Below are positions 10,349-64,000 of a stretch of DNA of 64,000 nucleotides, in pieces. The position numbers and the translations under genes were made by a program. The notes beneath the pieces are model-generated. The model saw only the letters and a list, made by a program, of their open reading frames with translations. It made no database searches and was not told the DNA's origin. Position 1 is the stretch's first letter, and each line of letters begins with the position of its first letter. Source of the DNA: Botryllus schlosseri (Eukaryota); assembly GCA_051294905.1 (NCBI GenBank), contig CM119371.1, positions 7,566,001 through 7,630,000 of the forward strand. The letters run 5' to 3'.

Positions 10349-10382
<34 letters not shown>

Positions 10383-10501
10383 TCATCCGATCATGAAGCG
10401 GGTGAAATTTACCTGTTTTTGAGAATTCTTCTCCAGTTTTGCTTGTCTGAAATTTCTGAAAAAGTGTCCTCTTTTTTCATTTCCGAAATATGGTAAGCCT
10501 A
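9734..10501. mobile_element. hAT (Blackjack-like) MITE nested in 8820-10902
   Basis: Perfect 13-bp TIR TAGGCTTACCATA / TATGGTAAGCCTA with subterminal TGTCCTCTTTT motifs. Perfect TSD CCATAAAT at 9726-9733 and 10502-10509. Confidence 0.9.
9943..10388. repeat. Minisatellite: 64-bp constant unit plus variable poly-T, five full copies and one partial
   Basis: Units start at 9943, 10023, 10102, 10177, 10253 and 10328. T-runs are 16, 15, 11, 12, 11 and 30 nt, each flanked by GATGAC...GTCATC. Confidence 0.95.
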
Positions 10502-12200: not shown

Positions 12201-12456
12201 TGTTATGTTCGTGCATTTACGTTCGGTGTCGTAGAACTCTTTCTTTCTATAGGATTAGTAATTTCAGCCAATCATTATTTCCTCGTGTGTCATGCTTGTA
12301 TTTATACCCTGTGTTCTGTTGTCTCGGGGTCTTTTCATTTAACTGTACTCTGGATCGTGTCGCTGCCTTAAAGTCATACTGCTGTTAAATATACTGATTT
12401 CGTATTGTAACCTCGTCGTATTGAGTTATTGTTCAAACAAGATCAAGAACATAACA
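12201..12456 (+). repeat. 5' LTR
   Basis: 10-bp terminal inverted repeat TGTTATGTTC...GAACATAACA, a CCAAT box and a TATTTATA motif. It differs from the 3' LTR by one substitution and a 2-bp indel. Confidence 0.96.
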
Positions 12457-12458
12457 AT

Positions 12459-12478
12459 TGGTGTCAGAAGTCGGATTC
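12459..12478 (+). promoter_or_regulatory. Primer-binding site, tRNA-Leu type
   Basis: TGGTGTCAGAAGTCGGATTC starts 2 nt after the 5' LTR. It is complementary, with one mismatch, to the recalled 3' end of metazoan tRNA-Leu (...GAATCCCACTTCTGACACCA). Confidence 0.85.
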
Positions 12479-12506
12479 ATATTTATTTCTGCGACTGAGA
12501 TACATC

Positions 12507-15500: not shown

Positions 15501-16652
15501 TCTTGGTTTTCGACTCGCAAACATTCGCTTTCTTTGCACGAAGACATAGTCATACTCAATATTGATGGTTTTCAGCGCGTAGTAATTCCGCAGTCACTTC
15601 GCTCGCGAGTCTTATCATTGTTGCACGAAGGACATTGGGGTATCGCGAAAATGAAGCAGATGGGTCGACGTTACATCGCATGGCCTTCCATTAATCGCGA
15701 CATTGAAAATCTCGTTAAGAGTTGCGACGCTTGCCGTAAGGTAATGAAAGCGCCTGATCGTCAGTATCGCGAATGGCCAAAAACTTCTGAAAGCTTTGAA
15801 CGAATTCACTTGGATTTCGCAGGTCCAATAAACAATAAAATGTTTCTTGTCATCGTCGATGCGCATTCGAAATATCCTTTCGTTAAAGTAATGAATATCG
15901 GATCTACCACAACCTTGTGTGTAGTCAACGCTTTGCGGGAAGTCTTCTCTATTGAAGGCTTGCCCATAACAATTGTCACAGATGGCGGGCCGCAATTCAC
16001 ATCGAATGAATTCGATACGTTTTGTTCTAATTTGGCAATCAGCCATATCGTGTCACCGTCTTTTCACCCTGCCTCTAACGGGGAAGCGGAGCGTTTCGTC
16101 CAGACTCTAAAAGCTGGATTGATAAAAAATTGCGACGGGGGAAAAGATCTCAACTTCGCGCTCCAAACACTTCTCGCTACGTACCGATGTGCACCACACG
16201 CGGGCATAGACTGGAAAACGCCTGCCGAGATTTTACATGGTCGGCAGCCGCGCAATTTGTTAAGTTTGTGCTCGCCCTTCGACAAATCGAAGCCCGTTAC
16301 GCCTGGACAATCAGTCACTCATTTTGAGATTGGTTCCTCGGTTTACGCTCGCAGTTACCGAAGCGGACCAAAGTGGGTTGCTGGCGTGGTGACGGAAATG
16401 CTGGGGCGTGTTGTGTACATTATAAAAACAGATCATGGGTATTGGAGAAGGCACAAAAACCAACTCCAACCACGCTTGATTTCACCTGGCAATGATACAG
16501 CCACACAGGAAGTTGCTCAGCCTCAACAGTCCCAAGCTGAGCAACCATTGGTCAGGAATAGGGCACAACGTCCTGCAGCTAGTCCTGCTCGATCGTCGGG
16601 CAGACGTTATCCTGTTAGAAATAGGAAACCCACCGATTTCTATAGACCGTAA
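12507..16652 (+). CDS. gag-pol: Gag-Pol polyprotein, 1381 aa from the first Met after the primer-binding site
   Basis: Two Zn knuckles (CSRCFIDHQRKDC, CQKCGRKGHIKPVC), protease WDTGA, RT (WAAPIV, RICGDFK, FIDD), RNase H (TDASQFGIGAVL), integrase HHCC (HEGH...CDAC) and D-D-E (HLDF, TDGG, EAER). No internal stops. The 12429 start in the ORF track is a TTG inside the LTR. Confidence 0.96.
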   Translation: MEASILKLLEKQQEMMAEQRAQHKEELAQHKEDMKQQNAQHKEEMAQLTQRLNPGASTSEATAPKFDSFIKSKEKWDQYLQRFNHHLAIYGISNMEKKRACLLSWVGPETYSLLRNLFGAADVSAQSFDALTDKLSTHFKDSIHVQAARYEFYNCKMQPGQSYADWIATLRGISKDCNFICSRDGCDQSYVDELMRDLIIKETPHADVRRHCLTQTNPSLDDVLKVATTYVRTLETDRVIQGESSGKDTSVVNKMTGSYQKGRKPSKSIQGNFPERLKSCSRCFIDHQRKDCQYRHSVCQKCGRKGHIKPVCMSTKPSIKQQVTSVNFCSVPLLSFDIDQLYRRVGNQLWINSSINGIPLPTQWDTGAPSAMVGLTGYKTLGSPKLSAYHCSFVAYGDKPLKVKGICTVSVQVGSEVRVGLKLVVLDEHRGQNIFGLDWSDAFSMTAKGTSALDAISSQMVKSQSCNTIDICDSNDKLVSFQSKFPSVFSNVLGRCTKTKVTIHLKPNAKPVFNKPRPLPFARQIAVQTELDRLVNQGILEPINYSDWAAPIVAVTKSNGSVRICGDFKALNQQIQIDQHPLPSLDEILHKLQGGCIFTKIDLADAYFQLELDDDAKNLCVINTQFGLFRYRRMCFGVASSPANFQRCIDAMITGLPGVASFIDDIIVTGIDERDHFRNLSLLFERLTEYGFTVNFAKCEFFKSSIEYLGHIIDKDGKRLSHKSVEAIKQLPKPQDVRQLQAFLGKVNYYRAFIPNFTNKAAALYRLLQKDAKFIWNTDCDAAFRILKNDVIDATQLAHYDVNKQLILSTDASQFGIGAVLSIEHNGEERPIAHASKTLSDSQKSYSQIEKEALSIIYGVTKFRQFLYGRKFTLVTDHKPLLAIFSPDKKIPVIAAQRLQRWALTLMAYQYDIRYKPTNQHGNADGLSRLPKGPDPEFDELEIRENAEIVHAINMAFDGLPLTRNEIRDATLKDKTMKLVKLSVTHGNWNPKVHIDDFSWFSTRKHSLSLHEDIVILNIDGFQRVVIPQSLRSRVLSLLHEGHWGIAKMKQMGRRYIAWPSINRDIENLVKSCDACRKVMKAPDRQYREWPKTSESFERIHLDFAGPINNKMFLVIVDAHSKYPFVKVMNIGSTTTLCVVNALREVFSIEGLPITIVTDGGPQFTSNEFDTFCSNLAISHIVSPSFHPASNGEAERFVQTLKAGLIKNCDGGKDLNFALQTLLATYRCAPHAGIDWKTPAEILHGRQPRNLLSLCSPFDKSKPVTPGQSVTHFEIGSSVYARSYRSGPKWVAGVVTEMLGRVVYIIKTDHGYWRRHKNQLQPRLISPGNDTATQEVAQPQQSQAEQPLVRNRAQRPAASPARSSGRRYPVRNRKPTDFYRP

Positions 16653-16685: not shown

Positions 16686-16943
16686 TGTTATGTTCGTGCA
16701 TTTACGTTCGGTGTCGTAGAACTCTTTCTTTCCATAGGATTAGTAATTTCAGCCAATCATTATTTCCTCGTGTGTCATGCTTGTATTTATACCCTGTGTT
16801 CTGTTGTCTCGGGGTCTTTTCATTTAACTGTACTCTGGATCGTGTCGCTGCCTTAAAGTCATACTGCTGTTAAATATACTGATTTCGTATTGTATAACCT
16901 CGTCGTATTGAGTTATTGTTCAAACAAGATCAAGAACATAACA
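16686..16943 (+). repeat. 3' LTR, preceded by polypurine tract AAGGGAGGA at 16676-16684
   Basis: Near-identical to 12201-12456 and followed by the TSD CCATA. Confidence 0.96.
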
Positions 16944-20514: not shown

Positions 20515-22084
20515 CAGTGGTTCCCAAAGTGGGTGCCAGCGCCCCCTAGGGGCGTTCGCGAGCGCGGAGGGGGCGCTGGCCATGAAATGGGCGATTAGGG
20601 AGCGCTGGCTAGAAAATGGGGCGGTAGGGGGGCGCTGAAAGCAAATGCAGGGAGTGAAGGCTTAGAATGAGGCAACTGCTGCGTACAGTGTTAAAACGAT
20701 TGATTAATAAAGCAACTGGATTCCCAGGAAAAATGCATAATAGATTAGGGAAGGGCAATTTAGGGTCGTCCGTCTATTTAATCAGCCGTATCGGTAAAGT
20801 CCATTATTACTTGACAATGTTATTCCTGCTCATCAATAGACTAATTTAGCAGCCGGAAGCATCCCCGACAAGCGTGGTTCATTGTGTGCTGTCGTGAGAA
20901 CTACGATGTGTATTTGAGCAGTTATTGCTCACTCAAGATGTGATGGCTTTTTAAGAGAAACTGTCTTGCGTGATTTTATTATCTGTTTCAAACGATCGTG
21001 GAATTTCCAAAGCGCTGTCACCGTGGCCTTCGACACGGCGTTCTGGTTGCGAGAAACGACATCACTCCTACTTGACGGTCGTATTTCTCAAAATTTAAGG
21101 GTAGAATACATCCATTCTTAGTAATGATAGAGGTGAACATGGCACTGTCTGTTTTCGGTGACAAGTCAGTGATAATTCACCGGAATTTTGCAACACAACA
21201 AATGTTCCAATTCTCAAGCTTGCTTTGAGCTACCGGTCCAATTCGAATACCTGATTTTGATGGAGAAACACGAATCAATCATCTCACAAAATTACAGGAG
21301 GATGGTGATTTGGTTCCAGGATATATTCCAATTAGAAATTCATCGCCGGATATTCAATCCATTCTGTGTAGTTTCCGGGCATGAAATGTTTGAGCAGCTG
21401 ATTACAATGTAGTTAGGGTAACATACGTCCTCTTTTTGACTTTTTTGAAAGTGCCCTCGGAGGACGCCTAAATGTCCTCTTATTTGAGAATTTGTCCTAT
21501 TTTTTTAAAAAATTTTGGTTAAATGTATGTGGAAATTTGACTGAGATATAGGAAATCAGCGCTCGGCGGATTTTTTGGGACCTGAGCCAGGAAAAATGAC
21601 CTTTTTTCTACTAACTCAGAAAAAAATCACCATTTTCCGGATTTTATTCAAGTATTGTAAGTCTGAAAATCTTTAAAAAGCTTCCTCTTTTCAGATTCCC
21701 AAAATATGTTAGCCCTGATTGAAGTGTAGAAAAATTTTGAGTTGAAAAGTTCATATCTCTAATCAATCGTTCTGGGTACACAATTGAATAAAAAATAAAC
21801 ACTCTGGTAGGAGTCAGGGTTGGCTTTATTTCGTCGTTGTCCTTCCCCGCTTATATTTGATAGAACGTGTTCTCAGCGCCGTGACCAAGCTCCTGACTCA
21901 CATCAGAAACCGACTTGCCAGAAGGCGTACATGAAGTGAACACTGGAGATTTTAGATTGATTTTGTTCCAGACTGATATTGTTCGTATCCAAATTCAAAA
22001 CCAATATGTCGAGAATGATGGGGGAGGGTGGCACTTCTTCCGTTGTCCAGGATGCGGCAGCTCAAAAAAGTTTGAGAGACACTG
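20515..22084 (+). mobile_element. Decayed hAT (Charlie/Buster, SCAND3-like) element
   Basis: Termini CAGTGGTTCCCAAA / TTTGAGAGACACTG and TSD CTGTGGAT vs CTGTAGAT. Transposase C-terminal relic ERVLSAVTKLLTHIRNRL...GDFRLIL. Confidence 0.85.
21414..21717. mobile_element. Older Blackjack-like MITE of the same family as 9734-10501, nested in 20515-22084
   Basis: Shares ACGTCCTCTTTT, GACTTTTTTGAAAGTG and CTCGGAGGACGCC with 9734-9850. Degenerate TSD (6/8). Carries a single ATGACCTTTTTT motif. Confidence 0.75.
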
Positions 22085-26442: not shown

Positions 26443-28070
26443 CTATATCTTCACAAACGTGGATGCATATATTACAAAACGTCGATCTACTCTTGGTTTC
26501 ACTAAATCCCATTTGTCTTTTGAGATATCATACTTTGCAATGGTGTTACAGGTTTCACCATTTGCTACTGCAAAAACCCAGTGATCCATGCAATGAGCAA
26601 AAACCCAACCATGACACGTATTCATAGAGGACACGGACGTCCACTGAGCTGAAGTAACATCGTAACACTCTACGTTGTTAACTTTTTTAGTTTTCTTCCT
26701 CCATCCACCCATCACGAATATCTTTTGATCAGATGCAACCACACCACTTTCACATACAGTATATCTCAATGGTTGAAGATTAACCCACTCTGATAATGAT
26801 GGAGTGAATCTGCAGAACGAAGAAACCATAGAACCATGTTGTCCTATACCTCCGACACAATAGATGGAATCATTCAATGATACCAGACTTGCAAAACGAA
26901 TCGCTGCGGGTTTGCTTTTCAGCTGATGCCATTGATCTACCGAGGGGTGATATGCTTCAACATCACTTGTTACTTCCGGTTGACTTCCTCCAATTAGAAA
27001 TATTGATCCCGACAAAGAGATTGATCGAGGATAGTTTCCATGATCACAAAGCATATCTCTCATTTTTTCCCATCTTGAATTTTTCATTTTGAAGTTTAGT
27101 CGATAGACTGATTTATTCTGACATAAAACATAAATGTATCGGCCAATAGAAATTGTCCCGAATGGTTTCAAATGCTTGAACTTCTCATCATTGAACTTCT
27201 CTACTTCCTCAATTATTGGATTAAAGGCCGGATACAATCAGTCTCATCATCAAAAAGAATGATCAATTCCTCATTGTACCCTTTTTCTGTTTTCTTTAGT
27301 CCCTCCCTTGCTTTTAGAATATGTCCATTGATAAACTTGTACAGCTCCAAGTTGTTGCTGATAATGGGGTGCGTTTTCAAAAGGTCTAGCAACATTGCAG
27401 TAGAGATCTCGTCGAACTTGATTACTTCAAGACACTCATACAAATGTTCCTGCTTTTTCGGATTTTTCTCAACCCATTTAAGCGATAATTTTAGTTTTTC
27501 TTCTTCCCATAATTTAGATTCTTCAAACTGGATTAAATTGATGAATTCCTGTTTTCCAATGTTTCCGAATTCAGGTTGGTGTGAGATTTCCATGATATTT
27601 TCTTTCAAAAATATGCTGCATTTTGCAGAGACGGCTTCTAGTCCATACATCTTGGTGAGATTTCTTGTGGCAAAGTAATTCTCCACAGTAATTGATTCCT
27701 CCAAGGTACCAGATACTGCCCTTTTCACATCTTCCAGCTGAAGCATGTTTGCAACACGAAGAAGTTCAACGATTTTTTTATGAGCCATCTCAAATTTACC
27801 CGAATATATGAAATCGATGCAGTTTTTCACACACTGGGAATCGACATCTTTCAATACAACTTTTGCTTCACGTCTCATCTTCGTGTCGTTCTTCAAAATA
27901 TCTTTGAAGTATGCCGAACCAGCAGACAATACATTTTTGTGGGTATAATAGACATCATCTCCAACTTGAATTTTGAAATCACAATGATCATTTTCTCGCT
28001 TCATTTGATGTAACTGTTTCATCATCGTCACTGCATGTTTCTCCACATCCGGACATGCGATTTGCACCAT
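26443..28070 (-). pseudogene. BTB-BACK-Kelch (KLHL-like) protein with a single coding exon split by one frameshift (pseudogene or assembly indel)
   Basis: 28070-27213 encodes BTB (CDFKIQV...HKNVLSAGSAYFK...IDFIYSG...ANMLQL) and BACK. 27237-26443 encodes Kelch repeats (IFLIGG, IYCVGG, IFVMGG, VECYD..W). Adding one G at about 27229 (CGG GCC) fuses them as DCIRAFNPII, giving about 542 aa. Splice acceptor tttcag lies 11 nt before the ATG. Confidence 0.88.
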
Positions 28071-29402
28071 GATTACCGGCTCTGAAATATACAGGCTAGA
28101 TAATATAGAGGTGTATTGATTTCTCTACAAACACAAAACGTTATCACTGGTATTCGAATACGCCATACGGACATCTAACTTCATTTATAAGTATCACGAG
28201 AATCATGAGGATAAAATCAGAGCACCATGAAAGAAAAATTAGTCATATTTCACTCATTAAATTTTCTATGCCATGACATAAAATTGGATGTCAAAATTTC
28301 AAAGCTACAACATGATAGTTCCTAAATTGCCTATACAGACACAAAAAAGTAATGTCCAATTGTATTACATGCAGGAAATTTTACATTCAGGCTACTAAAG
28401 AGGATGCATTGGTTGTAAAACAAACAAAAAATAGTCTTCAAATACCATTTTGACACACCTGACAATCTCAGATGACACACAGTAAGAGGATCAAGAAAGC
28501 AAACAATAAATGCCACTTTCTAATAATTTCAGTCTGACACAAATCAAGTTGACAAATATGAGCGGGAACTATTGGTTAATACACAGTAGATCTAAAGAGG
28601 ATCCATTCATTTGGTCTATTACATGGAAACAAAATCAAATGCAAATTCATGGAGACCGAATACTAATGCAATAGTTCCGTTATGTATTGTCCTACATCCT
28701 TAAATTACTTACTGAAGTACTTTTCTAAGCTCGCGTTTTTGCCCTACATCACACTGGTTCAATCTTTGGCCAATTTATAAGACACGTCAAAATACCTGAA
28801 GTGACAGCTAAAAACGTGAGTTACGTGTGTGATGATATACTATAATGTTTTATGCATCACAGTGAATCAAGCCTTGATATTATATAAAACATTATAGCAT
28901 ATAATCACACATGTAATAAATAGGTGTGCAAGGTAGCCGATCGCGCGTCAAACTATGCTATCAAAGTCAAGTTCACCAACATAATAAAACGACATAATCC
29001 GCCACGCCTGGATACCAGTATCAGTTTCACGTAACATAAGAATCTGATGGAGGTTCAAAACTAAATGCCATGGTTGGGATACTGGTGTTATATAAATCAA
29101 TAAGTGTGTGGATTTGAATTAGAGAGATTCTATTTATCATCAATATTGATATTATGAAAAACAAGAGACTTTTGACATGAATAAGACCATATAGGAACCA
29201 ATATTAGATTTCATACTTGGGAAATTTTGAATAGTGGCGTAAAGTGATATCCATACATAGCCAATAGGCATTAAGCAGTTGTCAATTAAATTGTTTAAGT
29301 ACTACCTATTCATTGCAATACCATTGCTGTTAAATTAAGTACAGTATAAAGACTTGCTGACAGTGCTATAATACTGTACAATGTGCAGTGTACAGTGTAC
29401 AT

Positions 29403-30021
29403 TAGGGCGGTTCAAAAATAACCTTTTTTCCTGAATCTTGCTGGCTACTTGATTAAATCGTTAGGTTGCCTTAAAAAACGACGCACACCAAATTTGAATT
29501 CATTCCAACCAATATTCGCGGATTTCGTAGAGTTTGAAAATTTTGAATTTGCCTAAAAATGCAAAAAATTTTTTTCTTCAAATTTTCCTTCCAACCTTAT
29601 GAAATTGTTGCGCTGTCTTTAAAGACGATGGAAAACAAATTTGACTCAATTCGAAGCAGTAGAAGTGTAGTTATTTCAGATTTTCTTTGATAATTCTGGG
29701 ATTATCCTTGATTGGTGGATCATCCCAGAATTATCATCAAAAAACTTGAATAACTCCGCTTCTGCAGCTTGGAATTGAGTCAAATTTGTTTTCCATCCTC
29801 TCTGAAGACAGCGCAACAATTTCATAAGGTTGGAAGGAAAATTTGAAAAAAATTTTTTTTTGCATTTTTAGGCAAATTCAAAATTTTCAAACTCTACGAA
29901 ATCCGCGAATATTGGTTGGAATGAATTCAAATTTGGTGTGCGTCGTTTTTTAAGGCAACCTAACGATTTAATCAAGTAACCAGCAAGATTCAGGAAAAAA
30001 GGTTATTTTTGAACCGCCCTA
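29403..30021. mobile_element. Foldback (almost fully palindromic) hAT-type MITE
   Basis: TAGGGCGGTTCAAAAA...TTTTTGAACCGCCCTA with about 300-bp inverted arms around a short loop near 29710. Perfect TSD GTGTACAT at 29395-29402 and 30022-30029. Confidence 0.92.
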
Positions 30022-31102
30022 GTGTACATTCAAGCAAGTTGAGAAAATTCTGGTTTGCTATATGATGTCAATTCATGGCTGGAATTTGGTAGATTAGGTC
30101 AGTGGCTCTGAACGTTTTGGAAAGCAGCGAAGCGCATAATCACCATACAATTACGTGCATTCATCGAACCATTCTCGGTTGGCAAACTCAATTATACTCA
30201 TTTCAGTAATCTTATAGCTTACCAAGTTTTTCTAGTTAGATTACGATGCACTGGGGCGGGTTCAAATTGCTAAGTCCGATATCTTTTTAAAAATTAAATC
30301 TGCTATTTCAGGGAGCGTTGTGATCTCGTAGTTTTGCCGAGGCAGGGCTAAAATCGCTGAACTTGACATTGCATATCATGCAGCTAGAAAGCTGACTCAA
30401 ATCCCGCCCTGTTACGCACACGCCAATCCATATTCTATTCTTCCAACCACTTTCCTGGTTCGACATAGTTAGTGTGAAGAGATCAATATATTAGGGAAAA
30501 AATCACACAACGTATACCATTGCGACAGTAACACCTCCACTAGCCTACTGAACGCGCCTAAAAGATAATTTGGCACTATTTCAGTAAGTTTGCCATTATT
30601 GTACGCTTGCTTGTAGAGCCTTCTTGCAGCGGAGTTGGCATCCCTGGCCGATATCACAGAATAATTATGTTAGTAATAATTATTCGAGTATGTGTATTGC
30701 GTAAGTGATGGCTTTGACAAGAACATGGAGACCGCACATTGCAATTAAAATATATGTTGATTTGTTTATTGAATAAATACCAAGTTAATCGAACGTATGA
30801 ACCCTAAGCATATGTTTAAATAACTGACAACAAATACTTGGGGTGTGTTGGTTTGTATAGCAATGCATTCTTGTTTTCAACGGGCACCGTACGATCCAGT
30901 CGGCTAACATATCTTGGTACAGTGAAGCATCTTTTGGAATGCTAGCAAGCATCTTTAATCACATTCTGAATAGTTCTGAATAGTGCACATGACCAGCCGA
31001 ACACTAGAAATTATTGTACAGAATCCAACAACTTATCTGAGCGGACAGGGTTTTGGTGCACTAAAGCTGACATCAAAATGAGGAAGGGCGCTGCCATCTA
31101 GA

Positions 31103-46600: not shown

Positions 46601-49600
46601 TTTGAGGGAAAGCTTTATGCACTTTCAATTATCCAAAGTATAGAAGATGGTTTTGGTATAGGATTGCATCACTTGTGTGGGTGAAATAGTCATGACAACA
46701 GAGCGTAATCGCGTCTGTATCGCGTCAACTGAATATATTTTGGAATATTTCACCAATTTCTAGCTATTTATTCACGTGGAGCCACCATATCTTGAGATCC
46801 GGAAACGAGTTCACATTTTACGAGCTATGAAATTTACAATAGCGGACGATAAATGCAGAATCTGAACATATTTACGGGAAATACTATTGCGCTGATTAAA
46901 AAAGGCCACTCTTCCATCTCGACCCTCGAACCCCTCATGACGTTATAATCTGTTATGTTTGACCTTTTCCTAGTCGGCCTTTCGCCACAATCCACATTTC
47001 GCGTCATTTATGGCGTTTTTAGTTGTCCCTGTACAATAGGGCTCTTCAAAAATGACTTTTTTTTCTCAAATCGTACTGGCTACTTGATAAAATTGTTAGG
47101 TTACCTAATTTAAGCCTACACACCAAATTTGGCTCCATTCCGGCCAGTAACCGCTTTGCTACAGGAGAAGTAAGTTTCAATTTATTATATAAAAATAAAT
47201 AATGAAAAATTTGAAAATTTTCTGTTCACCCCATGAAAGTGTTAGGTGATCTATAGAAACGATGGTCACCAAATCTGGTTCAATTCCAACCAGTGGAAGC
47301 GGAGCTATTGCTGTCGAAAAATTTGGATTTGAATAAAATAGTATTTACGGTGACCGATTCTTTGTTTATTTATTATAGTTGTGCTCACCGTAAATACTAT
47401 TTTATTCAAATCCAAATTTTTCGACAGCAATAACTCCGCTTCCACTGGTTGGAATTGAACCAAATTTGGCGAGCATCGTTTCTATAGACAGCCTAACACT
47501 TTCATGGGGTGAAGGGAAAAATTTCAAATTTTTTATCATTTACTTTTACATAATAAATAGAAACTTTGTTCTCCTGTAGCAAAGCGGTTACTGGCTGGAA
47601 TTGAACCAAATTTGGTGTGTAGGGTTAAATTAGCTAACCTAACAATTTTATCAAGTAGCCAGTACGATTTGAGAAAAAAAGTCATTTTTGAAGAGCCCTA
47701 CTGTACAAGTGTGCAATCACCAGACTGTCATAGCCATAAAGGAGTAAATTTCGGCGTCCTCTGAATAGATTTTCGATTTACCGCGAAATGAGGGACAAAC
47801 CCTTCTATAGGAGGACGTATATTGTAACCCTAAGTCACGATGCCGCATCTTTTAATTCCAACTAGTTTCTAAATGTTTTCGATCACTCGTCCAAATCTGC
47901 TTTTTGAAATTACTTCAGTGCCTTTCAGAACTTCATGTTCTAATACATCTCGAAGTACTTTTACTGGTAATCGAGTTGAAATTGTGTACCAAGGCTGCTT
48001 ACTTTGACCACCTCTGGTGGTAAAGTAGCTTACTTTAGAAAGTTATTTCTTCCGCCGTCTGCCGTCGTCCTGCGCATTACTTCAAATCCACCGATCGACC
48101 ATAAAGCAGCTCCCAAGACAGAAATGACACCCGCAACCATCACCACACATTGTAGTGCGTCAGCCCATAGAACGGCTTTGATCCCACCCTGATAAGAAAT
48201 CGCTCGTAGGAAACATATGTACCTTGCACACGAGCTCAACTGTTGCTTACTATTGCCGTGTAAAACGTACATACAGCGCTTGTTAGAAGAATTGTCCAGG
48301 TCAGCTCTAGAGGAGTAACAGCGTTTAGCGCCAAAGCCGGTATGTAAATGGCGATTGCAAGGAACGAAGTCTGTGGAGATGGAAAAAGTTCTATAATCTA
48401 GTGTTAGTTGGTAAAGTTAAATTGACCATCGCTAATAAGTAAATTTATTACGCCGATTCTTACATATGAGGAAACCGGACTTGGACCGAGCTAATGACGC
48501 ACGCAAATATTTCCCAAGTGGGGAGAATTTGAAATCAGAGCAAATGACGTAACGTAGCGTATATGTTACGCAGAGATTATCAGGATCGATTTTTCAAATT
48601 CAAGCCCAGTTCAGAATTTAGGATTCATGTAAAAATAGATATCTTCTTTCGAATCATCAAGTAATTATTGGAATTTATCCAGGAATCGCATGAAAATTGG
48701 AAAATTCTCGGAATTTTACGTCCAAGTTCTAATCTAGCTTTCGAAAATCCATTTTTATTTCAAATCCGGACAACATCTTGTCGCGGATGCCAAAGTTTAT
48801 TAGTTTTGATATAAGAAAAGGTGCGCGGAATTGGCCTGGTAGTCAAAACATGAATCTGTTTGCAGTGTTACCAACACTCCTAAATGGCATTGGCATGGTT
48901 AAAAACGACAATATCACTATAAGCTCCATTCAAACAACAAACTGCAATAGTAGTATAGCGGTAGTAGTACAGAGTAGATGTATGTTGATATGTATGCTAT
49001 TTTAGGTACTTTCACAACACTCACGCCGGAAAATACACACAGCGTCATAAAGTAACATACCGTGCTGCAGATTCCAAGAACCGAAGCCGCGATTCGTACA
49101 TAGCGATGAAACCGCAGTTCAAGGTACTGCAAGAGGAATTGAACAGTGTGTCAGGAAATTTCCTGACGCTACCGCAATAATCAATCCTATTGACGGATCG
49201 AATAGTGAGCTAGTATTCTCGGAAACCAACAATTAGGACTAAAGTTTCATATGTCATATACATGCATACAACATGCTAAATCAACCCAAATTGCGAATAC
49301 AATCGGATGTATTTTTGCAAGGTAGACGAGCGACATGCATGTGTAGTGTGCACACTGCACATGTTCGCTTGAAAATTACTTTGATTACTACATGCATATT
49401 GCATACGCACAACTACGACACTCGATCTAATACGTTTTCTAACTTATTTATGAGGAAATCCGACTAAGCGTTTCCTTCCATGTAATTGCTGCGTGGAATA
49501 AATTGCGGCTGCGAACGAAAAGAGTTAGTTTTTCGTCATTTAAAGCGGAGTTCCTTGACATATTTCTGAATATATAATGACAGCATGTACTTCTCATTTA

Positions 49601-52600
49601 CTATTGCGTTCATAAGGTTGTTTGTATCAATTCACCAACAATGTTCTTTTTTCGTTTTTTTTTACATACCGCATTAACTAGTTAGCCCGAGTGTATATAT
49701 ATATATAAATAGTGGGTTATAATTGCTTGGCTCGGGCTTAACATGAGCTACCGTTTTAATTATACACTTATATTACAGTTTATGTTATCTTCGAAATTTA
49801 ATAGACACACTCAGTGGTCAGTAGCGACTAGCGACGTGTCACGACTCACGAGACGCTATACATGAAATAATATTTTCGATGCAACAGAAAAATGAATTGT
49901 CACTTATTGATAATTTTGAGTTCGCTTCTTCTGTAATTTGTCCAAGTTATAAACTTGGTATAAACCTCACAATCACAAAACATAATGTCGACTCGCAAAA
50001 AAGGTTATGTCCGAACTTGTAAGTTTCACCACGCCCATTCTTAGTATTGCTACCGGTGATCGTAAAGGCCTTTATCGGCGTTTCCGGTTTGTGCGCCACG
50101 AACACGAACACAGAATCAGGAAATGATAGCTAACCAATACATACTGAGCTAATGGGCTAAAAATTATTTCGTAAATCAACATAAATCTACAGGTATTTTT
50201 GGGAGATCTATTGGACTTGAAAATTTTCTTGGAAACCATTTGTTAGCCAACGTAAGTATAGATACATTGCACCGAAAGATATGAAAACACACAAATAAAA
50301 ATAGTAGGAGCCGTATGAAGCCACACCAAGAGAGTTTGCCAGGCCACCGGCCAATGTCTTATCATCGGAACCTCTCACCTGATACACACTGCTTATTTGA
50401 AGCCGATGAAATAACGGCACGTAATACAATACGGCCATGGTCGAGGTGATGTAAAATCCCACCATATACCAGGCGGACACCAATCCATGATAATACACTT
50501 CGGTCGGAAATCCTATCACTGTCAATGCCGACACAAAGGAGACTGCTATAGATATTGCCACCAGAACCTGCGTCAACAAGATTCAATAATAAAGTTGGTG
50601 TTCGTTGAAATACCCCAAGAAGACCGCATAGGCCTATTATGAACATAGGAACGAACGAAATGGAATCACGCTTCAAATATGCATGAATCAATCGATCCAA
50701 GAACATTGCACGTGGATATGACTTATCATTCCCGAACATTGCAAACAGATTTTGCGCTATAGCTTCAGTCAGCTATAACAACACACTGTCCACCGACAAA
50801 GCGGCATCAATTGACATGGAAGACCCGTTTCATCATCGAATCAATGAAGCTGCTAGGAGCAATTTGCATCTCATGCAATGAAACCGATTCAAGAAGCGAA
50901 GTTCAGCATGAGATGGGGCGCGCAACTTCACCGGTCGGCGGGCCGGATATGAGAAAATGAAGCACTTGGTGGGCTGAATTACAGAATATATACATTAATA
51001 GCGTATTTATCCACCTATAAAAGGGATAAATCATTTAAAATGTAAACCTAAAGTTCAAATCATGGATACCAAAAACAGTATTTAATGAATTTATGAACAG
51101 TAGCTGCTGAAGTCAATCAGGCATTTGTGGCCGGTCAGAGTTGTCAACAAGCTCTTTGAGCTCTGACTATATGTCCTATGTAGAAACTCTTAGTAAAGAC
51201 TGCACGTAAACATGAGTTATATTGAAACGCAGCCTTAAATGGTTAATGTTCATTTTCGAAATGTATGTAGGCCTACACCCAAGCAGAGCAAGTAGTTTCA
51301 TGCCCATCTTTCTCGGATTGGCAAACTTGGATTCATCCTGTGACGCATGAAATGTGTCACTACTTTCAGAATATAATATCACTTTCAGGGTCAAAACTCT
51401 CTTCGGATCGGACAAAATCCCTTCACGGGTCGGATCCTGACCCCCGACAGTATGTTGCCCGTCCCTGCCATATCGTATACGTCGGCTATATCGGGTGGAA
51501 ATTCTCGCAAATACGAGCTCATAAAACACGTGTTTTGTAAAGTATTTACACAATTATGGCCTAATTGTACAACTTATCACCAGTTTTATTAAAAGGCCTC
51601 TGCTTAAAACACTGTTTAAAACATGTTTTAACCAAAGTGTTTTAAACAACCCCTTGTTTCAAATGCAACCCGCATGACCATTTCGTCGCACTTTGTGCGC
51701 ATTATGCTGGTCGATTATTACGGACAGAAATGTCTTCCGATAATCATTCGTGGTCGCGTAAAACATGCTTTTCGATGCTGAGATATGACTAACGTAAGTT
51801 TGGAGGCAGCAACGGTATAAATAAAGAACTTAAACTATATTTTCCGTTGTCAACGTATTACTAGGCGTGACGGAGTATTAATATTATTATTATTATTAAT
51901 ATGGTTAAAAGTTGTAGTGGCGCTTATCTCCCTTAAGGGTCTGGTGCACCACGGTCCGAAGTTACCGACTGGTATAAGTACCCTTGCAATGTATTTCAAC
52001 CTCGTCTATATACGAATCAAATCTTAAAGGATTCGACGACACGACAGCACGAATTCAGCCACAGGGGTTAATAGCTCGGGCTGGACTAATAGGTTATAAG
52101 TCGTGAATGGGATGTCATGATTACGGCATGACTCAATGAGAAAGGACCGTTGAAAATCGTATCTTGCACAATTCAGTAGAAAGTGGTCGACAGTTTCGGT
52201 GATATTACTATGGAGACATAGCGGAGTATCTGAACATCCTATTTTGAACGAATGGGCGTTAAGCCTACAATGGCCGGAGCGCAGACGGAACATGATCACC
52301 TCGAATTGCCGACATGCATGCATTGACGGGAATTTATTTGAAATGCAACTATGGAAACGCTTATAATGCATCCCTTTATCTTCGCATGCGTACAGTTCCT
52401 GCCAGAGAGTTTGCAAATATTGGCGGACAAGTGACTTAGCTTCTCCGATGGTCATTGGTCACCTCAGGGACCTGACGATTCTGGCCAGACAAAGCCCCGG
52501 ATGTTGCTTCGCGGTCGGCGATCTCGTTGCCATGGATACCTTTGTGACTGGGAATCCATCCAAATTCTACCTCTATACCTCTTCCAGTAACCCGCTCAAG

Positions 52601-53923
52601 CAAGGGGAAAAACTTGTTAAAGATATCTGTCGGCGCAGTGAGAGGGTCGGATATCGTGTTCAACACACTAAGCGAGTCTGAAAGAATCACATATTTGTCT
52701 TCTTTGCATCCATAATCGGAAACCCAGGCCAGTGCATGAAGAATCGCTAAAAGTTCAACATGGAATACGGAATGATAAACATGACAAGTTCTACTAACCG
52801 ATACCGAACGAGAGGGGATATAGAAAGCGTAAGCGGGTTCTATTGAGGTCTGGGACCCATCTGTATATATCTCGATAGCATTCAAATATATAGTATTCAA
52901 ATATATAGCATTCAAACATATAGTCGTGGAAACATGCTTTTATGACATCTTGAGTAACATTCTTCGGGTGTAAACGTAGCAGTTGCGTATTGACGATTGA
53001 TGGCTGGGCCAGCCACGGAGCTTGATAGTGGGAGAGGGTTTTCTCCACTGAAATTTCCCGAAACAACGGGACGTTGGAGTGAATGTTATACGTGACAAAG
53101 CTAGGTCTAATTAGCCCATATATCTCGTGCCATGACTCTTGCAATAGCCCAAGTGCGGAATGTTGAATTGTTGATCTGTATTTTGTTTGAGTAGATAACA
53201 GCGATAGTTCATACACAGATATTTATGTCTAATCTGAAGAGGGGGCTCATTGCATGCTGCTTGTAACGCACAGACCGGGGAGCTGCGCATTGCTCCACAA
53301 CATAAACGCAATGCTTTGTTCTGCACTACTTCGATCTTTTTCAAGTGGCATTTAGGAGAGAAGTAGTATGCTGGCATACCGTAGTCAATAACAGACCTGA
53401 TTAGAGACCTGTATAACTGTAATAATGACGATTTGTTACATCCCCAGCTCGTACCACAAAGTGCACGCAACATGCGTAACGGGGTATATCTGCAGTACTC
53501 AACAACATCGACCCTCAGTAATCGATTCCATTCACTACAATTGATACTCGACTCATATTCGAGTACTTGCGTCCTTGTGCATATGGCTCCACTGAAAATA
53601 AACATATATTCGACCACAGATGTTCTTCGTTTGCGCCGAAATCCCTCTCTATGTTCGACGTGCAACAGCTCGCCGCAATAAATGATAACATATTTTTCAT
53701 ACTGGCGAAACGGCTCTTCCTCCAAAATAGTAGTTGTCCGTAGTTTGCTGTTTCCTGTCTCGGTATGCGAAAACAGCTCCTACCGTTGTAGATAACGCAA
53801 AAAGTCCTGTAAACATACATCAAGACACAACTATTTGATCATACTAACTATTCAACGACTATGCCGCTACGTACCGATGAAAATTACGAAGTCGACAGCT
53901 CCAAATGTATCTGCTTTGTGCAT
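37673..53923 (-). CDS. SLC5A8-like: Sodium:solute symporter, SLC5A8/SLC5A12/SLC5A6/NIS clade; 13 coding exons, 594 aa
   Basis: Exons (all introns GT-AG, phases consistent, total 1785 nt): 53923-53875, 53806-53703, 50567-50379, 49126-49061, 48370-48251, 48188-48034, 44356-44216, 43611-43393, 43326-43214, 41902-41745, 41669-41476, 38804-38701, 37845-37673. Motifs YYFGGR, SFVSALTVIGFPTEVY, YLELRF, GGIKAVLWADALQ, YEGCDPL, PDQLMP, LPGMAGLFVAAAFCGTMSTVSSGLNS. Exact ortholog not determinable. Confidence 0.93.
40595..41120 (+). mobile_element. GACTCGAG-rich hAT MITE, complete intronic copy
   Basis: TIR CAGGGCTGTAA / TTACAACCCTG, colinear with 25803-26341. Imperfect TSD TGAAGGAG vs TAAGGAG. A further 3' fragment lies at about 43960-44106. 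Confidence 0.85.
44483..46538. mobile_element. hAT (Tip100-like) non-autonomous element in an SLC5 intron
   Basis: Perfect 15-bp TIR CATAGGCGCCGAGTT / AACTCGGCGCCTATG and TSD CCTACATG vs CCTCCATG. Internal duplicated block (AAATGCAGCAATGCAG at about 44960 and 46075). Confidence 0.88.
47037..47700. mobile_element. Foldback (almost fully palindromic) hAT-type MITE related to 29403-30021
   Basis: TAGGGCTCTTCAAAAATGAC...GTCATTTTTGAAGAGCCCTA with about 320-bp arms. Perfect TSD CTGTACAA at 47029-47036 and 47701-47708. Confidence 0.92.
50913..51467. mobile_element. hAT (Charlie-like) MITE, same family as 24317-25205
   Basis: Shares GAAAATGAAG.ACTTGGTGGGC and the TATGTTGCCCG.CC.TG end. The left terminus is degenerate. 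Confidence 0.6.
51879..53473 (-). mobile_element. 5'-truncated, frameshifted non-LTR retrotransposon (I/Nimb group) with RNase H, in SLC5 intron 2
   Basis: RT thumb region (SWGCNKSSLLQLYRSLIRSVIDYG...QNKALRLCCGAMRSSP), RNase H (IYTDGS, ELLAI, SDSLS, WIPSHKGIHGNEIAD), C-terminal RLRSGH...ETVDHFLLNC and a (TAA)n tail at 51879-51900. 14-bp TSD GCGTGACGGAGTAT (51865-51878) vs GCGTAACGGGGTAT (53474-53487). Confidence 0.92.
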
Positions 53924-56262: not shown

Positions 56263-56362
56263 ATGGAAGGCAGGACATCGACGAAAGCCTATCTGCTGGC
56301 TGCACTGGTGTTTCTTGTGGGGCAATGCGAGGAATCAAAAGCGGCTACCACTACGAAACATG
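56263..56362 (+). CDS. First coding exon of a probable secreted or membrane protein (signal peptide)
   Basis: MEGRTSTKAYLLAALVFLVGQCEESKAATTTKH has a charged N-terminus and a hydrophobic core, ending in a phase-1 donor G|GTAAAT. Acceptor ttgcag at 56228. No downstream exon found in the window. Confidence 0.55.
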
Positions 56363-56725: not shown

Positions 56726-58605
56726 CAGTGGTTCTCAACCGCCGGTCCGCGGACCGGTGCCGGTCCGCGACGACTATTCTGCCGGTCCGCCAGACATTTT
56801 GTAATTTTATAGTTCAATTGCAAAATAAAATAAGTTGAAGTTAGCTTTATTGATAAAAGAAGCAACACACCACATTTAGAACTGAACAGAAACATCCTTA
56901 TTTATTCGTACCACGCATTTCGTAGTACGTCTGGTGATGTGGTAGTGGGGAATGAGCAAAGGTGTTTGTCGCGACTCCGAAACGCTTCTTTTCTCGATAT
57001 TATCGAAGAGAAGAAGAACATTTAAGTTGGTGTATTCCAGGGGTTCCCCACCTAGTTTCACGACCCCAACGGGTCAGTTTGCCTATTCTACGGAGTCGCG
57101 GGACAGAAATGCAATACCAATGACCATTACAAGAATGTCATTGAACCGGGTGCTATCTGCAGTTCATTTCTGTTTATTCTAGTTAATTTTGCAAAATAGA
57201 AAATAAAACGACCTCTAAAAATTGCGATCTTGGCAAACAAGGTATCATCAGACCAGTCGAAGCGTCGTGCTGAAGCGCCACCCACTATAACGTAAGGTTG
57301 GAGTCTGGTCACCTCTATTAAAATTACAATGTCGTGAGCCTAGAGATAAATGGGATGGCAATTTTCCTTCCAAGTGACCGATAGCGCTATGTGATAATGG
57401 TTCCCAAACTGGGTTCCGAGGTTCGTTTGGGGTCCAGGAGACATTTTTGGACCGCGAAGCACGTTGCGAAAAATTCAAACTATCCAGAAAAAACTAATTG
57501 TTGAATTATAACAAAATTCAGGCAACTGATTGTTAAATCAAACTCGATGGTGGCGGACATGACATAATATCATTAATGAACATGAAGTGGAATATTTCGG
57601 TGCTAAATGATTCAATTTTAAATTCAAGTCTCGCCTCGCGCGCTTTAGTGTCACCATGTATTTCTCGATTTTTGACCAACGCGCGACTTCACGAGAAGTT
57701 CGCTGGCAAAAAGATCACTGGCGGCATGTTGGCCGGAACCATCGATGTTGATATTTTCAGCCACCGAAATAGTCGTCACCGAATAGTCCTAATTGAAGCC
57801 GCGCGTGGTACAAATGCGACCCGCGGAGAAAAATAATGCCCCCCGCGTGTTAAAATGCGAATTGAAAAATGAATTTTCCTTTTTTTAGTCTGTTACGTGT
57901 ACGTGACTCCTATAATATTAAAGTAGCCACAATCATTACCTGGGTTCACGAGTAAGCAACATGCTTCAACAAATTAATTGCTGTAATATTGACAAAATTT
58001 ACTCCCCCATAACTTCGCGATTCACCCGACAAGAAAGTAGCTGTGTACACGGATTTTCATAACACGTATTGGTGCTTACTAAGCCGAAAGAAACAAATTA
58101 ATAAGTCTCACATATGCCGTTAGCTAATTCGGCTCATTCGTGAATTCGTAGTAATACCGATTGTGAATTGGATGTATAAAGTGTAGTGTTGAAATTACCG
58201 GAAGCGGTACGAGGGGTCTGAAGGACTTTTTCCTCCAGATATTATATGTTGATCACCCTATGACGAGCAAGACCACCGTTTTTAGGTGTTTTGTGTAAAT
58301 TTGGTAAGGGACCGTGAGTCATACAAAAGATTGCCAAGGGACCGTTTCGTGAAGTAGTCGGTAGTCGTGTAGTTGGTCAAACCACGGCCTTATCAACACA
58401 CTACCGCAGAATTTCATGAATGACGTCATGAACACAAATAGAACCATCAAAATGCCACTCTCCAGTAGCATTCTTGCAAAAAATGGTTGCATGCTTTTAT
58501 CGCAATTGCATTTCGGGTTCATTCCATTTTTGAAGGTCCACCGGTCCGCCGACTATTTTTTGAAATTTTACCGGTCCGCGAGCTCAAAAAGGTTGAGAAC
58601 CACTG
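56726..58605. mobile_element. hAT (Charlie-like) non-autonomous element with nested inserts
   Basis: Perfect TIR CAGTGGTTCTCAACC / GGTTGAGAACCACTG with CCGGTCCGC subterminal motifs. Perfect TSD CTCTAGGG at 56718-56725 and 58606-58613. Confidence 0.9.
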
Positions 58606-59001
58606 CTCTAGGGGCATCAAGCCTACAACCCACGCGGGTCGCATTCGACTCGTCAAACGATTTCATCCAGCCAGCGAAGCAATTCTGACTGGATTGAAAA
58701 ATGCGTTACGTTTTTTAATGAGAAATACTTTGATTTGATTAAATAATCCACCAAAACAGCAAATCTCGAACATGTTCATAATAGACACATTAACTAGCGT
58801 TACTATACGTCCTCCATTAGGAGGAAATTTTCCAACTTTTTCTGGAAATTGAAAATGTCCTCCGAGGACGCCTAAATGTCCCCATGTTTGTCAATTCATC
58901 CTATTTTACAGATTTTGCAGCTAGGCTAATGGACAGGAACAACTGAAAATTGGCACAAATTCCGCAAAATAGGTAATGCGGACGCTCGGGCAGGTCATCA
59001 G

Positions 59002-59454
59002 TAGGGCTGGGCATAACGATCCGACTAAGCTTCTCGCCACTGAAAGTTAATTAATAAACAATATTTATAGTTTCGATATTAATTTTCACTGTTGATGCCT
59101 AGAAACCTTGATTGGCGGTATCGTAGGTTCGTAGCATGCGAAACATATATGACAAGGCTACGAAGGTTACTGGGCAATGGACATAGCACATTTCTTTTCC
59201 GAAGTCATGATTATCCCACAACATTGTCACCAAGTCGAATGAAATCGGTATGGTCAGGGAAATACCATACCTATAATTTATGAGATGGATAAAAGGCATT
59301 ATATTCTTCGTGGTGACATAAACGGTGCATATTTGAACTTTGACTATCATATTGCGTTATGACGTCATAATTGGTCATACTAGATTACTCGACTCGAAGC
59401 ATATCACGTGATTCAGAATCGAATCACCTAGGCACTCTAGTTTGCTCAGCCCTA
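59002..59454. mobile_element. hAT (Ac-like) MITE nested in a decayed Blackjack-like MITE (about 58796-59615)
   Basis: TIR TAGGGCTGGGCA / TGCTCAGCCCTA. Perfect TSD GTCATCAG at 58994-59001 and 59455-59462. Confidence 0.88.
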
Positions 59455-59934
59455 GTCATCAGGGAGTCGGATCACAGCAATGACCTGATTTTAGTCAACA
59501 CAGCAAGATTTCCAGTAAATATTTCCAAATCAGCTATCATCAATTTCATAACACTGACTTTAATAATTTTTAAAAAAGTGTCTTCCTTTACGGTTTCCAA
59601 AATATGGAAACCATACATTAACCATCCGACGAAGTTGCAGTTTCACTTTTAGTCACTATTATTAGCAATTCGGTGACACTGAAACCAATGTACCCTCTAA
59701 TATTTTTACTAGTCCACGCGTAGCCTATACTCACCAATTCACTGCGCGGTCATTTGGATAACAGTGTGTAAACACTAAAAAGCCATCACTTCGGCTTTCT
59801 TGTGCGCGGCACAGATTTTCCTGTGCGCGGCGACTTCGTCACCAGTGCGTGACCGCGCACGCGCGCAGTTAGAGGGGGCATCGAATGATCCCTTATTCCG
59901 AAATGGCCAAACAAAGTCATCATTGAGTTTAGAG

Positions 59935-60225
59935 CAGTGGTTCCCAAATTTTTTCGGTGTGAGAGTCAAATTTATAATTTAGGAGTACAGTCGGGGCTGC
60001 ACGAATACCAAGGCTATGAAACGGACGCAAACAGTCATCATGGCTATTTCGGAGTAGTTTTATTGCCCTAGCGAGATTTCAAAACTGTACACTGTTTACC
60101 GCTGCTTATCTGCTGCATTGGGTGTCCGTTGAGTGAATCAGCTTTTCTCGCCTAAACGCACGATACGCGAGAAATTTCTTTAGTTTCATGACTGAATCGG
60201 TCAATATGATCGGGAATTGCATGTA
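59935..60225 (+). mobile_element. Left arm of a Charlie-like hAT MITE, apparently interrupted at 60226
   Basis: Starts CAGTGGTTCCCAAA after GTTTAGAG. No matching right TIR was found in the remaining 4 kb. Confidence 0.55.
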
Positions 60226-63200
60226 AGTAGTATAGTAGATCGGTCGTGACTTGGTGTTTTTTGCATGGGGCTCTTATGGGCGGGGTGGCATATCGCCTGG
60301 AAACCCGGGGTGGCATATCGCGCTTTTAGACCCCCCTCTCGGTCGCACATCGCCATTGGTTCTTATGGGTGCGCTCGCATGTCGCACTTTTAGATATAGG
60401 CATCTCTCGCACATCGCATGGAAAACTCGTGGTGGCATGTCGCACTTTTAGATATAGGCATCTCTCGCACATCGCATGGAAACTCGTGGCGGCATGTCGC
60501 ACTTTCGAGTATAGGCATCTCTCGCGCGGTGTTGAATATGTACGAGTCACCAACAATAACCGCACCAACGGAAACGCGGCTTGCAATAGGATTACGCGTG
60601 CGACCTATATTTCGAATGACCTGCGCACCGAATTATTTCTCGTCCAGCCGCTACTATCGATTATTACACTATTCCTGAATCGTAATGAAAACTCGCGGTC
60701 GTGATTCGTACTTTCCCGTGATTCGTAATGGATTCTTATGGACGCGGTCGTGATTCGTACTTCGGGTATAGGCGGCGGCGGTGATTCGCCTGTCATGTAT
60801 TCTTACGGATCTGTGGTGACTCGCCATGTGTTCTTATGGGTGCGGTCGTGAATCGCCCTTTCGGGTATAGACATCTCTCGCATGTCGTATTGGATACTCG
60901 TGTTGGCATGCGACTCTTATGTCTTATGGGTGCGTTGGCATGCGGTTAGCGTTATTCTTATGGACGCGGCGGAGATTCGTACTTTCAGCAAAAAAGGTGT
61001 GGAATAGTTTATAAAATCTTGGAATCACTCGCAGAATTATATTTTGGTAATTATTTTGTCACAGAGCCGGCGTAGACGGCGCTTCCAACACCAACAATAA
61101 CCGTCCACACAAACTAACACTTCAAAAAAGGTGTGAAATATTTGTAAAATGCTACGATCACTCACAAGATAATGTCCCAGACATAACCATCATTCGCGAC
61201 TTGATGTTACATACATACCAATCGCTCACAAGGTAATATTTTGATAGTTTGATACGGAACTTGATTTCACTCGTAAGATTTATTAAGTAACGAATAACAG
61301 ACCGCCAGTGTCGGTAACTTGAATAGCGACAAATTGTCACTTATTTCCGCTCTAACCCTAATCCTTTGTGAAGTGAACGCTTATTCAAAAGGGTGTGATA
61401 TAATTTTAAAATCCAACGACCACTCACCGGATAATGCTTCAGACATATAGCAATCTCTCATACCCGCTCACAAGGTAATATTTCGGTAATAAGTTTGTCA
61501 CAGAGCCGTCGCAGACGGTGATTCGAAAACCAACAATTTGTCACTCGCCCGCGATCGCTATATGTTTCACACCTCCAGAATAGTGGCTGACTTTAGTTGC
61601 GTGATAAGATCCATGAAAATATTCAATCAATGTGTTAGTTTATCAACTTGAAATGAAACTCACTACACAAATCAAGTCGATTCGTATCTGAATGTTTTAA
61701 ATCGGTACAACTCTAATCCTTTGACAAATCCCTTAACGCGTTTTTGTTGAATCGAACGTAACCCGAATATTACTGACGCCGACTTTCAGCCGCATCGAAT
61801 TATTCGCACATTCCGCGCCACTGTTTTCACACTTATAGAATCAATACAAGAATCAAGAATCACAAGTATGTGCATTACACAGTTATTGTCTTTATTAACT
61901 TGAAATCAAACACTTAACAAAAACACGCAACTAATCATTTGGCAACTCTAGCATTACCAAAAAATTCCAGTATTGTTGATTGAAAATCCTTGAGTCATTA
62001 TTATCAAAAATGTTATAGTACCGCATCGGAATCCATTCGCGGATGTACCAAAGGTAAATCCAGATAATCCAAAATGAAATATTTGGACTTTGACAAACAT
62101 GACTACCAACTGTGATCCAGTCACATTTCAAGATCATACTTTGAAACAATCCTTGAAACTTACAACTCTATTCACGACTGAGTTTTCCGTTTATCAAATA
62201 GAGTTTCAGTAAATACTATCGCTATGGTGTCGCTATATTTTAATGTATAGAATCAATCAATGAAATAACACCTGTTGTAAATATTTCTAACTTGACAACC
62301 ACTTGTCCATACCGCGATCGACTTGTGACGCGATGAGTTAAATCGGAATATTTCAATCTATTTGTCGAAACCTTGAACAAACTATCAGGTTATTTTTTGT
62401 TGTAATCGAGTGAACGGAATTAGTAATACGTCTCAACATTTTAACATCTTGCCACCAACAAAAGAGTAAAATACAAAAACCTTGTCAAGTCAATCCGTTT
62501 GTAACTCACCGAACCAAAGCAAAAAGTGTCCATGCGAAAAGTAGACAAGACTACACCAGTAATCACTACAATCCAAAATCCATAGCAAGTTCGGTTTTAG
62601 GCGTATACCACCAACTCGTCTTTTTATTTGTTCAACTGTAAAAGTCGTTACTATTCTGTAAGATAAAGTAATTACTACTCGGTATATTTTATAAACCAAA
62701 GTAAATACTACTCGGTGTCTGGTTTGAGATTAACATATTACATTTGAGTATACCGGATTTGAATGGCTGACCAACGTAGTTGAGAATTTATTTCTTACAA
62801 TCAAACGCCGGTGTTACATCGAATGGTATCATACTGTAAACATAAGGATTGACACATTGATTTGATATATGAGATTTTGTAATGTTCGACCACGTCTTGA
62901 TTATTAAATTATTCACGATAATTAGACCCGGTGTTGTGGTAAAGGTTATTAGAAAATATCACTTTTGACATCGAGCACCAGTCGAAGTGGGTGAACAATA
63001 CTTAATCCTTTCAGTGACTCCCTGTTGTACGTGCTAAATGTAAAACATTACGAGGTTAAACTCTAAGACTTTGATCAGCACAAGAGCAATTTGGACTATC
63101 TTTACTGGCTGTAACCTATTCTACTAGACAAAACTCGCAGCATTAATAAAATCAAAATATGTGCTACACTGAAATCTACAAAATGTGTTTGTATTGTTGC

Positions 63201-64000
63201 TAGTAGCGATCATGCATTATCATTTGAATCTTCTAAAGTAATTGTAATGATAAAACCAAACTACTCAAAGTCATTACCAACACAAAAAACGATTTCTATG
63301 ATATTCGTCAAACGCATCATACCCCAGTATGCAGAAATTATTTGTAGAGTGCATACCAACAAAGAAATCAGGAACACAACCAACACCGAAAATGATAAAT
63401 GCGTTTCGTGCTACTATTGATACAAGTTCATTTCTATCAGGTGAAATAAACGCCATCACAAAACTCAGAGCATGCAAAGGTCTTGATTGATATGAATTTC
63501 GATTTGTGTCTTATGATACCGGCAAGCATTTTAGAAATATTATGATTCGTTAAACCAAAGTCGTATGTCCGATTAATAATTGATTGGAAACTTGATCACG
63601 TACCTCGATCATTACAGAAGATTATAACACCATTGTCGGACAATCTTTTACAAAAGGATCGAAACCAAGTAACCCAAAGTCGTTGCCGTCGCATAAACAA
63701 TTTGTACGACGTTTGATAAATGTACCCGATACTTTGGTGTACTAGAAATATTTGTAAAACACACTCTGGTAAAGAAATCGAAAAGATATCCTACACCTAA
63801 ATCTGATAAAACCATTTTACACTTTTTGTTCGTCAGTAGTATCCATTTGAATTTTTCCATTTCCTCTCGTCAAAGTAGATGTAATCATAGTCGCTAAAGA
63901 ACTCACTTGGATGTGTTTGAATTCTAGACATAGTTATGATTTACTCGACGCAAGACCCAAGAACAACAGTAGTTTACAGCCGTGCACACATATCCAAAAT
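60226..64000. mobile_element. Candidate left end of a Polinton/Maverick-like large element or endogenous DNA virus
   Basis: Begins AGTAGTATAGTAG, followed by about 750 bp of GC-rich repeats (57-58 bp unit starting at 60377, 60435, 60492; many TCTTATGG and GTCGTGATTCGTAC motifs), a second repeat block at about 60990-61550, then packed intronless decayed ORFs on the minus strand. No pPolB, integrase or capsid gene is visible within the window. Confidence 0.45.
63200..63931 (-). pseudogene. Two tandem paralogous ~100-aa frameshifted ORFs of unknown family
   Basis: Copy A (ATG 63931): IQTHPSEFFSDYDYIYF...LGVGYLFDFF...RTNCLCDGNDFGLLGF. Copy B (ATG 63529): IKTFACSEFCDGVYF...FGVGCVPDFF...HRNRFCVGNDFE*FGF. 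Both need frameshift correction. Confidence 0.5.

Follow-up and report, generated by a model that had tools for sequence, protein, structure and literature searches.

Near its right-hand edge, this window (the whole 64-kb stretch of DNA analysed) contains a transposable element that starts and never finishes. A hAT-type terminal inverted repeat (TIR) opens a miniature element (MITE), and some 290 bases later the sequence turns into DNA of a different kind that runs off the window. What is this second sequence, and which enzymes placed it there? The features that define the insertion site are as follows.

59927..59934, plus strand: GTTTAGAG, predicted as the hAT MITE's left target-site duplication (8 bp, as in the closed MITEs) and lying directly before the TIR
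59935..60225, plus strand: left portion of the hAT-type, multi-copy MITE that received the insertion, with an unclosed TIR, depth above that of the unique flank and sister copies that diverge behind 60222
60220..60225, plus strand: CATGTA, a predicted 6-bp target-site duplication directly ahead of the motif; five of its six bases agree with the sister MITEs
60226..60231, plus strand: (AGT)2 terminus, the Maverick/Polinton end motif, at most 3 bases from the MITE break

The TIR that opens at 59935, with GTTTAGAG before it, has no reverse partner downstream in the window when up to 3 mismatches are allowed, which bears out an earlier reading of the sequence alone that this MITE is never closed. 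Four other hAT MITEs in the window are closed (3645-4028, 8820-10902, 20515-22084 and 56726-58605). Their 8-bp duplications are exact in two cases and carry one mismatch in the other two, and TA occupies positions 4-5 of the left duplication in three of the four. The name hAT is our assumption for these MITEs, based on features of their TIRs and duplications. A further open TIR lies at 5401. No close sister of the MITE at 59935 was found in the 64-kb window, and its relatives were instead read from public sequencing runs, where it is multi-copy. The stretch beyond it is present in 20 of the 23 runs listed, seawater metagenomes among them, which suggests a marine animal as the host. Contigs from four of the 23 (X1, X5, X16 and X17, from four studies) were aligned to 58500-64000. 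X1 may be the source sample of the window.

These contigs locate the break. Among the matches listed, loose contig ends lie behind 60222 in X1 (241), X16 (13) and X17 (158), with none in X5, and the sister-MITE contigs of the first three runs carry on past 60222 as ATATATTGCTATC. In the window, CATGTA occupies 60220-60225 and AGTAGTATAGTAG begins right after it, at 60226. At 60223-60225 the window reads GTA, followed by AGTAGT, where the sister MITEs read ATA, so the MITE must break between 60222 and 60225. The simplest reading would be that a single base changed at 60223 and that the MITE breaks at 60225/60226; alternatively, the break could fall at 60222/60223, leaving GTA ahead of AGTAGT. 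No contig among the matches listed bridges the junction between MITE and element. The insertion into the hAT MITE is real.

The first bases beyond the break are those of a known terminus. AGTAGT had been named as the start of an element before the break was known, and in three of the four runs other MITE copies proved to leave the window sequence at most 3 bases away from it. The hexamer occurs 41 times in the window, counting both strands (3.2e-4 per base), and the chance of one landing in the 4-base break interval is about 1e-3. Of the two boundary motifs that mark membership, (AGT)2 or (AG)3, the visible left end of the element carries the former. The pair (AGT)2//(ACT)2 is the commonest end motif among vertebrate Mavericks in the excerpted text of PMC8097293, and the Maverick machinery comprises a protein-primed polymerase and a DDE integrase in that of PMC6431247. 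With its 5′-(AGT)2 end and its insertion as a unit, the element resembles the Maverick/Polinton elements of both excerpts. As a clue to the mobilising enzyme, a six-base motif is weak evidence. No left flanks of other copies ending at AGTAGT appear among the matches listed, and the terminal 18-mer has no match in viral contigs. It has nine in metagenome contigs, none of which extends past 18 bases.

Behind the terminus lie two layers of short repeats, both in the plus orientation.

60266..60993, plus strand: first repeat layer, GC about 0.5, made up of direct repeats only: a 58-bp unit (60377-60525) and shorter, degenerate ones
60984..61547, plus strand: second repeat layer, with 60-70-bp blocks duplicated at 77-85% identity

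The roughly 1.3 kb of layered repeats described in the sequence-only reading stand out clearly from the background: the stretch yields 32 self-matching diagonals against 1-6 in ten local shuffles, and 26 of the 32 fall within 60266-61547. The 58-bp unit is present in 2.6 copies at 94% identity, and the motif TCTTAYGGR has seven of its eight plus-strand occurrences in the window within the first layer. There is no long tandem array in the stretch and no inverted copy of it within the 64-kb window. A search for local DNA hairpins in 20 windows on two strands gave no z below -1.3, none better than shuffles. The change of character reported earlier is modest in composition (GC 0.43, then 0.505, then 0.39 and 0.34).

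The repeats give way to a plainer arm, which can be divided by sequencing depth.

61548..63099, no strand assigned: AT-rich non-coding arm of high depth; one 33-bp motif occurs twice (61639 and 61891) and a 33-bp unit forms a tandem pair (62652-62716)
63100..64000, no strand assigned: inner non-coding arm of lower depth, running off the window, with an old 155-bp duplication (63253-63406 and 63662-63817)

Contigs from all four runs give depth in each bin of the stretch, and the sequence is multi-copy up to the window edge in each of them. Relative to the unique flank at 59604-59787, summed contig depth at 61260-61811 is 83-96 in X5, 87-111 in X16, 71-95 in X17 and 490-641 in X1, and at 63284-64000 it is 7-18, 6-25, 3-17 and 73-122, respectively; these sums differ from copy numbers and serve only to establish repeatedness and to compare outer with inner parts. 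The outer 2.7-2.9 kb is common to more copies than the inner part. The two copies of the 155-bp duplication share 65% identity, with a score of 77 against a best of 38 in 100 shuffles. A variant lacking the 382 bases between 62999 and 63382 occurs in all four runs. Depth falls several-fold at 62900-63100 in all four, and the deletion variant begins at 62999; this interval may separate a part common to every subfamily from an inner arm that varies. What occupies 60226-64000 is one end of a large, multi-copy element that carries a Maverick-type terminus and sits in a hAT MITE.

Does this element carry genes? The sequence-only reading had seen tightly packed, decayed open reading frames here, a description that is not supported. 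The longest stop-free stretch in 61600-64000 is 101 aa, a length matched by 29% of 500 random sequences, and it overlaps the old 155-bp duplication. Stops number 295 against an expected 309 +/- 15, and there is a mild excess of stop-free stretches of at least 60 aa (nine, against a mean of 5.2 in random sequences). In 60226-61600 no frame exceeds 124 aa, and the one of that length lies inside the repeats. The AATAAA near 61891 is present, as noted earlier, but it lies on the minus strand within the 33-bp motif duplicated at 61639, and that copy lacks the hexamer.

Searches by family point the same way. No Pfam family reached its cut-off in 12 frame translations spanning 60226-64000, and there was no match at all in the six frames of 60226-61700 or for the 101-aa stretch; in the same window, the scan did find the rve integrase domain of an intact Gypsy polyprotein. 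No Maverick core gene (polymerase, integrase, ATPase, protease or capsid) reached the cut-off in 60226-64000, the visible part of the element. The sole Pfam match in the six frames of 61600-64000, to PF21694, was rejected, as it scored 15.3 bits (E 0.021) and fell short of the cut-off of 27. Matches were likewise absent from PHROGs (none of six frame translations) and Rfam, and the Atlas held no usable match for the 101-aa stretch. Word searches against proteins of 30-439 aa retained none of 678 candidates for residues 380-800 of frame translation P0001 and none of 1,969 for P0002; the latter also gave pattern matches in viral contigs (4) and metagenome contigs (74), none confirmed. Look-up by sequence found no look-alikes in the same genome or in relatives, and one bacterial match (3 of 180 words) was rejected as unrelated.

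The full HMMER search covered only the minus frame P0005, with P0003, P0004 and P0006 covered by family scans only. It returned five matches of 41-102 aa, all unnamed and in clusters of one or two. Placed on the window, one changes frame, another jumps the 382-base deletion and a third follows the window for 57 residues and then enters another frame; the remaining two run through window stops. All five look like the products of automatic gene calling on non-coding DNA in sister copies. On present evidence, at least 3.8 kb from the terminus seems to be gene-less, with no coding signal.

We propose that 60226-64000 is probably the outer 3.8 kb of the left arm of an element about 13.6 kb long, gene-less or nearly so and almost wholly made of one inverted repeat, with Maverick/Polinton ends and mobilised by Maverick enzymes. 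Such an element would accommodate the sharp insertion into the hAT MITE, the (AGT)2 end, the repeat-rich subterminal DNA, the multi-copy status and the lack of coding signal. A mirrored right arm would end near window-equivalent 73851. The predicted right end would read ACTACT, then CATGTA as the second half of the 6-bp duplication, with the MITE resuming as TATTGCTATC and closing with its TIR and GTTTAGAG. It would have Maverick-type ends and probably work through Maverick enzymes, and we do not call it an autonomous member of that group.

The panhandle model and slide-back priming are the background to the mechanism that we envisage. The element would retain only the cis signals of a Maverick: its terminal motif would act as an origin of protein-primed replication, and the subterminal repeats would be putative protein-binding sites. 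Its polymerase would come from an autonomous Maverick that shares the germ line, and would copy from one end, displacing a strand. As the two arms would be complementary, the displaced strand would fold into a single long panhandle with a ready duplex origin and could be copied again. The helper's integrase would then insert the product, making the 6-bp duplication. The element may have originated by copy-back, in which the polymerase switches template and returns along the new strand; the gene block would thereby have been replaced by the mirror of one end. More tentatively, we speculate that it might be a natural copy-back satellite: a genome-length palindrome, replicated by the helper's protein-primed polymerase, held near helper size through packaging in the helper's capsid and outspreading its helper in the germ line.

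The strongest competing explanation is a gene-less DNA transposon of the foldback type from a different superfamily (Mutator- or P-like), mobilised by a transposase of the cut-and-paste kind; its AGTAGT start would then be coincidental. In the excerpt from PMC4079207, foldback elements, most of them Mutator-like, combine long TIRs that contain tandem repeats with a non-coding middle, and the visible anatomy here, a repeat-rich and non-coding end, fits that description. Tetris and Galileo, as excerpted from PMC4079207, PMC3688188, PMC3573991 and PMC4168063, resemble the proposed element in their long repetitive TIRs, non-coding middle and non-autonomous state. Tetris, however, makes 8-10-bp duplications and has TIRs of up to 1,735 bp in the excerpt from PMC4079207, whereas the element here ends in a Maverick motif and its arm is longer, gene-less over at least 3.8 kb. 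The coincidence that this explanation needs, (AGT)2 at the MITE break, has the chance of about 1e-3 given above. We regard a foldback transposon as unlikely.

An ordinary Maverick end, autonomous or decayed, would consist of a long TIR and an accessory region, with core genes past 64000. The end motif and the insertion suit it, and the depth drop after about 62900-63100 might mark the inner end of a TIR. In the excerpt from PMC8097293, the core genes of vertebrate Mavericks sit inside accessory regions, so that they could lie out of view here. The frame lengths tell against this explanation (none above 101 aa in 61600-64000 or above 124 aa in 60226-61600), and the gene calls on look-alike DNA are out of frame. 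Decay is a poor account of the absence of genes, since close copies at 63163-64000 differ by only 0 of 249, 4 of 384 and 6 of 252 bases (0-2.4%). That divergence is too small to erase genes beyond recognition, and a true gene in this interval should therefore remain readable. An ordinary Maverick end is thus improbable, somewhat more so than a foldback transposon.

In a last explanation the repeat would be genuine, but the assembler would have created its size, mirror structure or position, or else it would belong to a Helitron or satellite block and to no TIR element. Assemblers can produce giant palindromes, and no contig among the matches listed spans the junction or the stretch. Against this, the MITE breaks cleanly at a known end motif, long tandem arrays and local terminal hairpins are absent and all bins of the stretch have depth in four runs from four studies. 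Such an explanation seems very improbable.

The gene-less Maverick derivative that we favour changes how the locus was first understood. It had been read as one end of a Polinton-like endogenous virus of 15-25 kb. A large multi-copy element with a Maverick-type end, lodged in a MITE, is retained from that reading, and a gene-bearing virus is not, as the visible 3.8 kb has no coding signal. The accompanying hedge, that this could be another kind of large element, was closer to the mark.

Non-autonomous Polintons are already known. Kapitonov and Jurka reportedly described such derivatives in 2006 as Maverick ends without core genes, moved in trans. These are said to be shortened deletion forms, unlike the full-size palindrome proposed here. 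Copy-back and snap-back defective viral genomes have one end duplicated in mirror image, have lost genes and depend on a helper. Unlike them, the element here is present in an animal germ line as integrated, multi-copy DNA, and its dependence on a helper is putative. Vertebrate Mavericks, in the excerpt from PMC8097293, show 6-bp duplications, and intact elements measure 12.7-24.6 kb with TIRs of 46-1,447 bp; the predicted 13.6 kb or so falls within this size range, and if the palindrome holds, its inverted repeat would extend over several kb, in contrast to the TIRs. Unlike Mavericks and Polintons, the element shows no genes in the 3.8 kb from its end. The literature searched, which left out most subscription papers and Repbase, yielded no description of full-length palindromic Maverick derivatives.

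Most of the interest lies in the palindrome and in the link to a helper, both of which we infer. Replication and possible packaging of animal Mavericks have so far been largely inferred as well. If the proposal is true, a family reduced to its ends, without genes, would reveal which cis signals are sufficient, and a full-length palindrome would make the folded single-strand intermediate directly testable. A copy-back satellite, if that is what the element is, would be the DNA counterpart of copy-back defective genomes, turned into a heritable transposon family. A single locus viewed from one end adds little beyond what its nesting offers: an insertion into a known empty-site sequence allows an exact test of duplication length.

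The remainder of the window contains other mobile and repetitive DNA. An intact polyprotein of the Gypsy type, with 1,413 codons and reverse transcriptase, RNase H and integrase domains, occupies 12411-16652 on the plus strand, flanked by direct repeats (12201-12456 and 16686-16943) of 98.8% identity; judged by its sequence, the whole is a young LTR retrotransposon. On the minus strand, 52024-53779 holds broken open frames that resemble, as we take it, the end of a non-LTR retrotransposon that carries reverse transcriptase and RNase H. Also on the minus strand, 26443-28124 encodes a BTB-BACK protein and, after it and in another frame, a kelch-like open frame; no intron is obvious, and the locus is possibly a frameshifted, intronless copy. 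An inverted pair 5 kb apart (2552-2986 and 7994-8429) extends over 438 bp at 85% identity. Two copies of an element of roughly 650 bp, itself palindromic, lie at 29396-30028 and 47030-47707 (65% identity), and at 9943-10366, inside the MITE at 8820-10902, units of about 80 bp are repeated in tandem at 92-95% identity. Finally, the exon identified in the sequence-only reading at 56263-56362 on the plus strand has an ATG, 33 codons, a hydrophobic stretch like a signal peptide and a GT donor; if it is real, the hAT MITE at 56726-58605 and the element at 60226 sit in its first intron.
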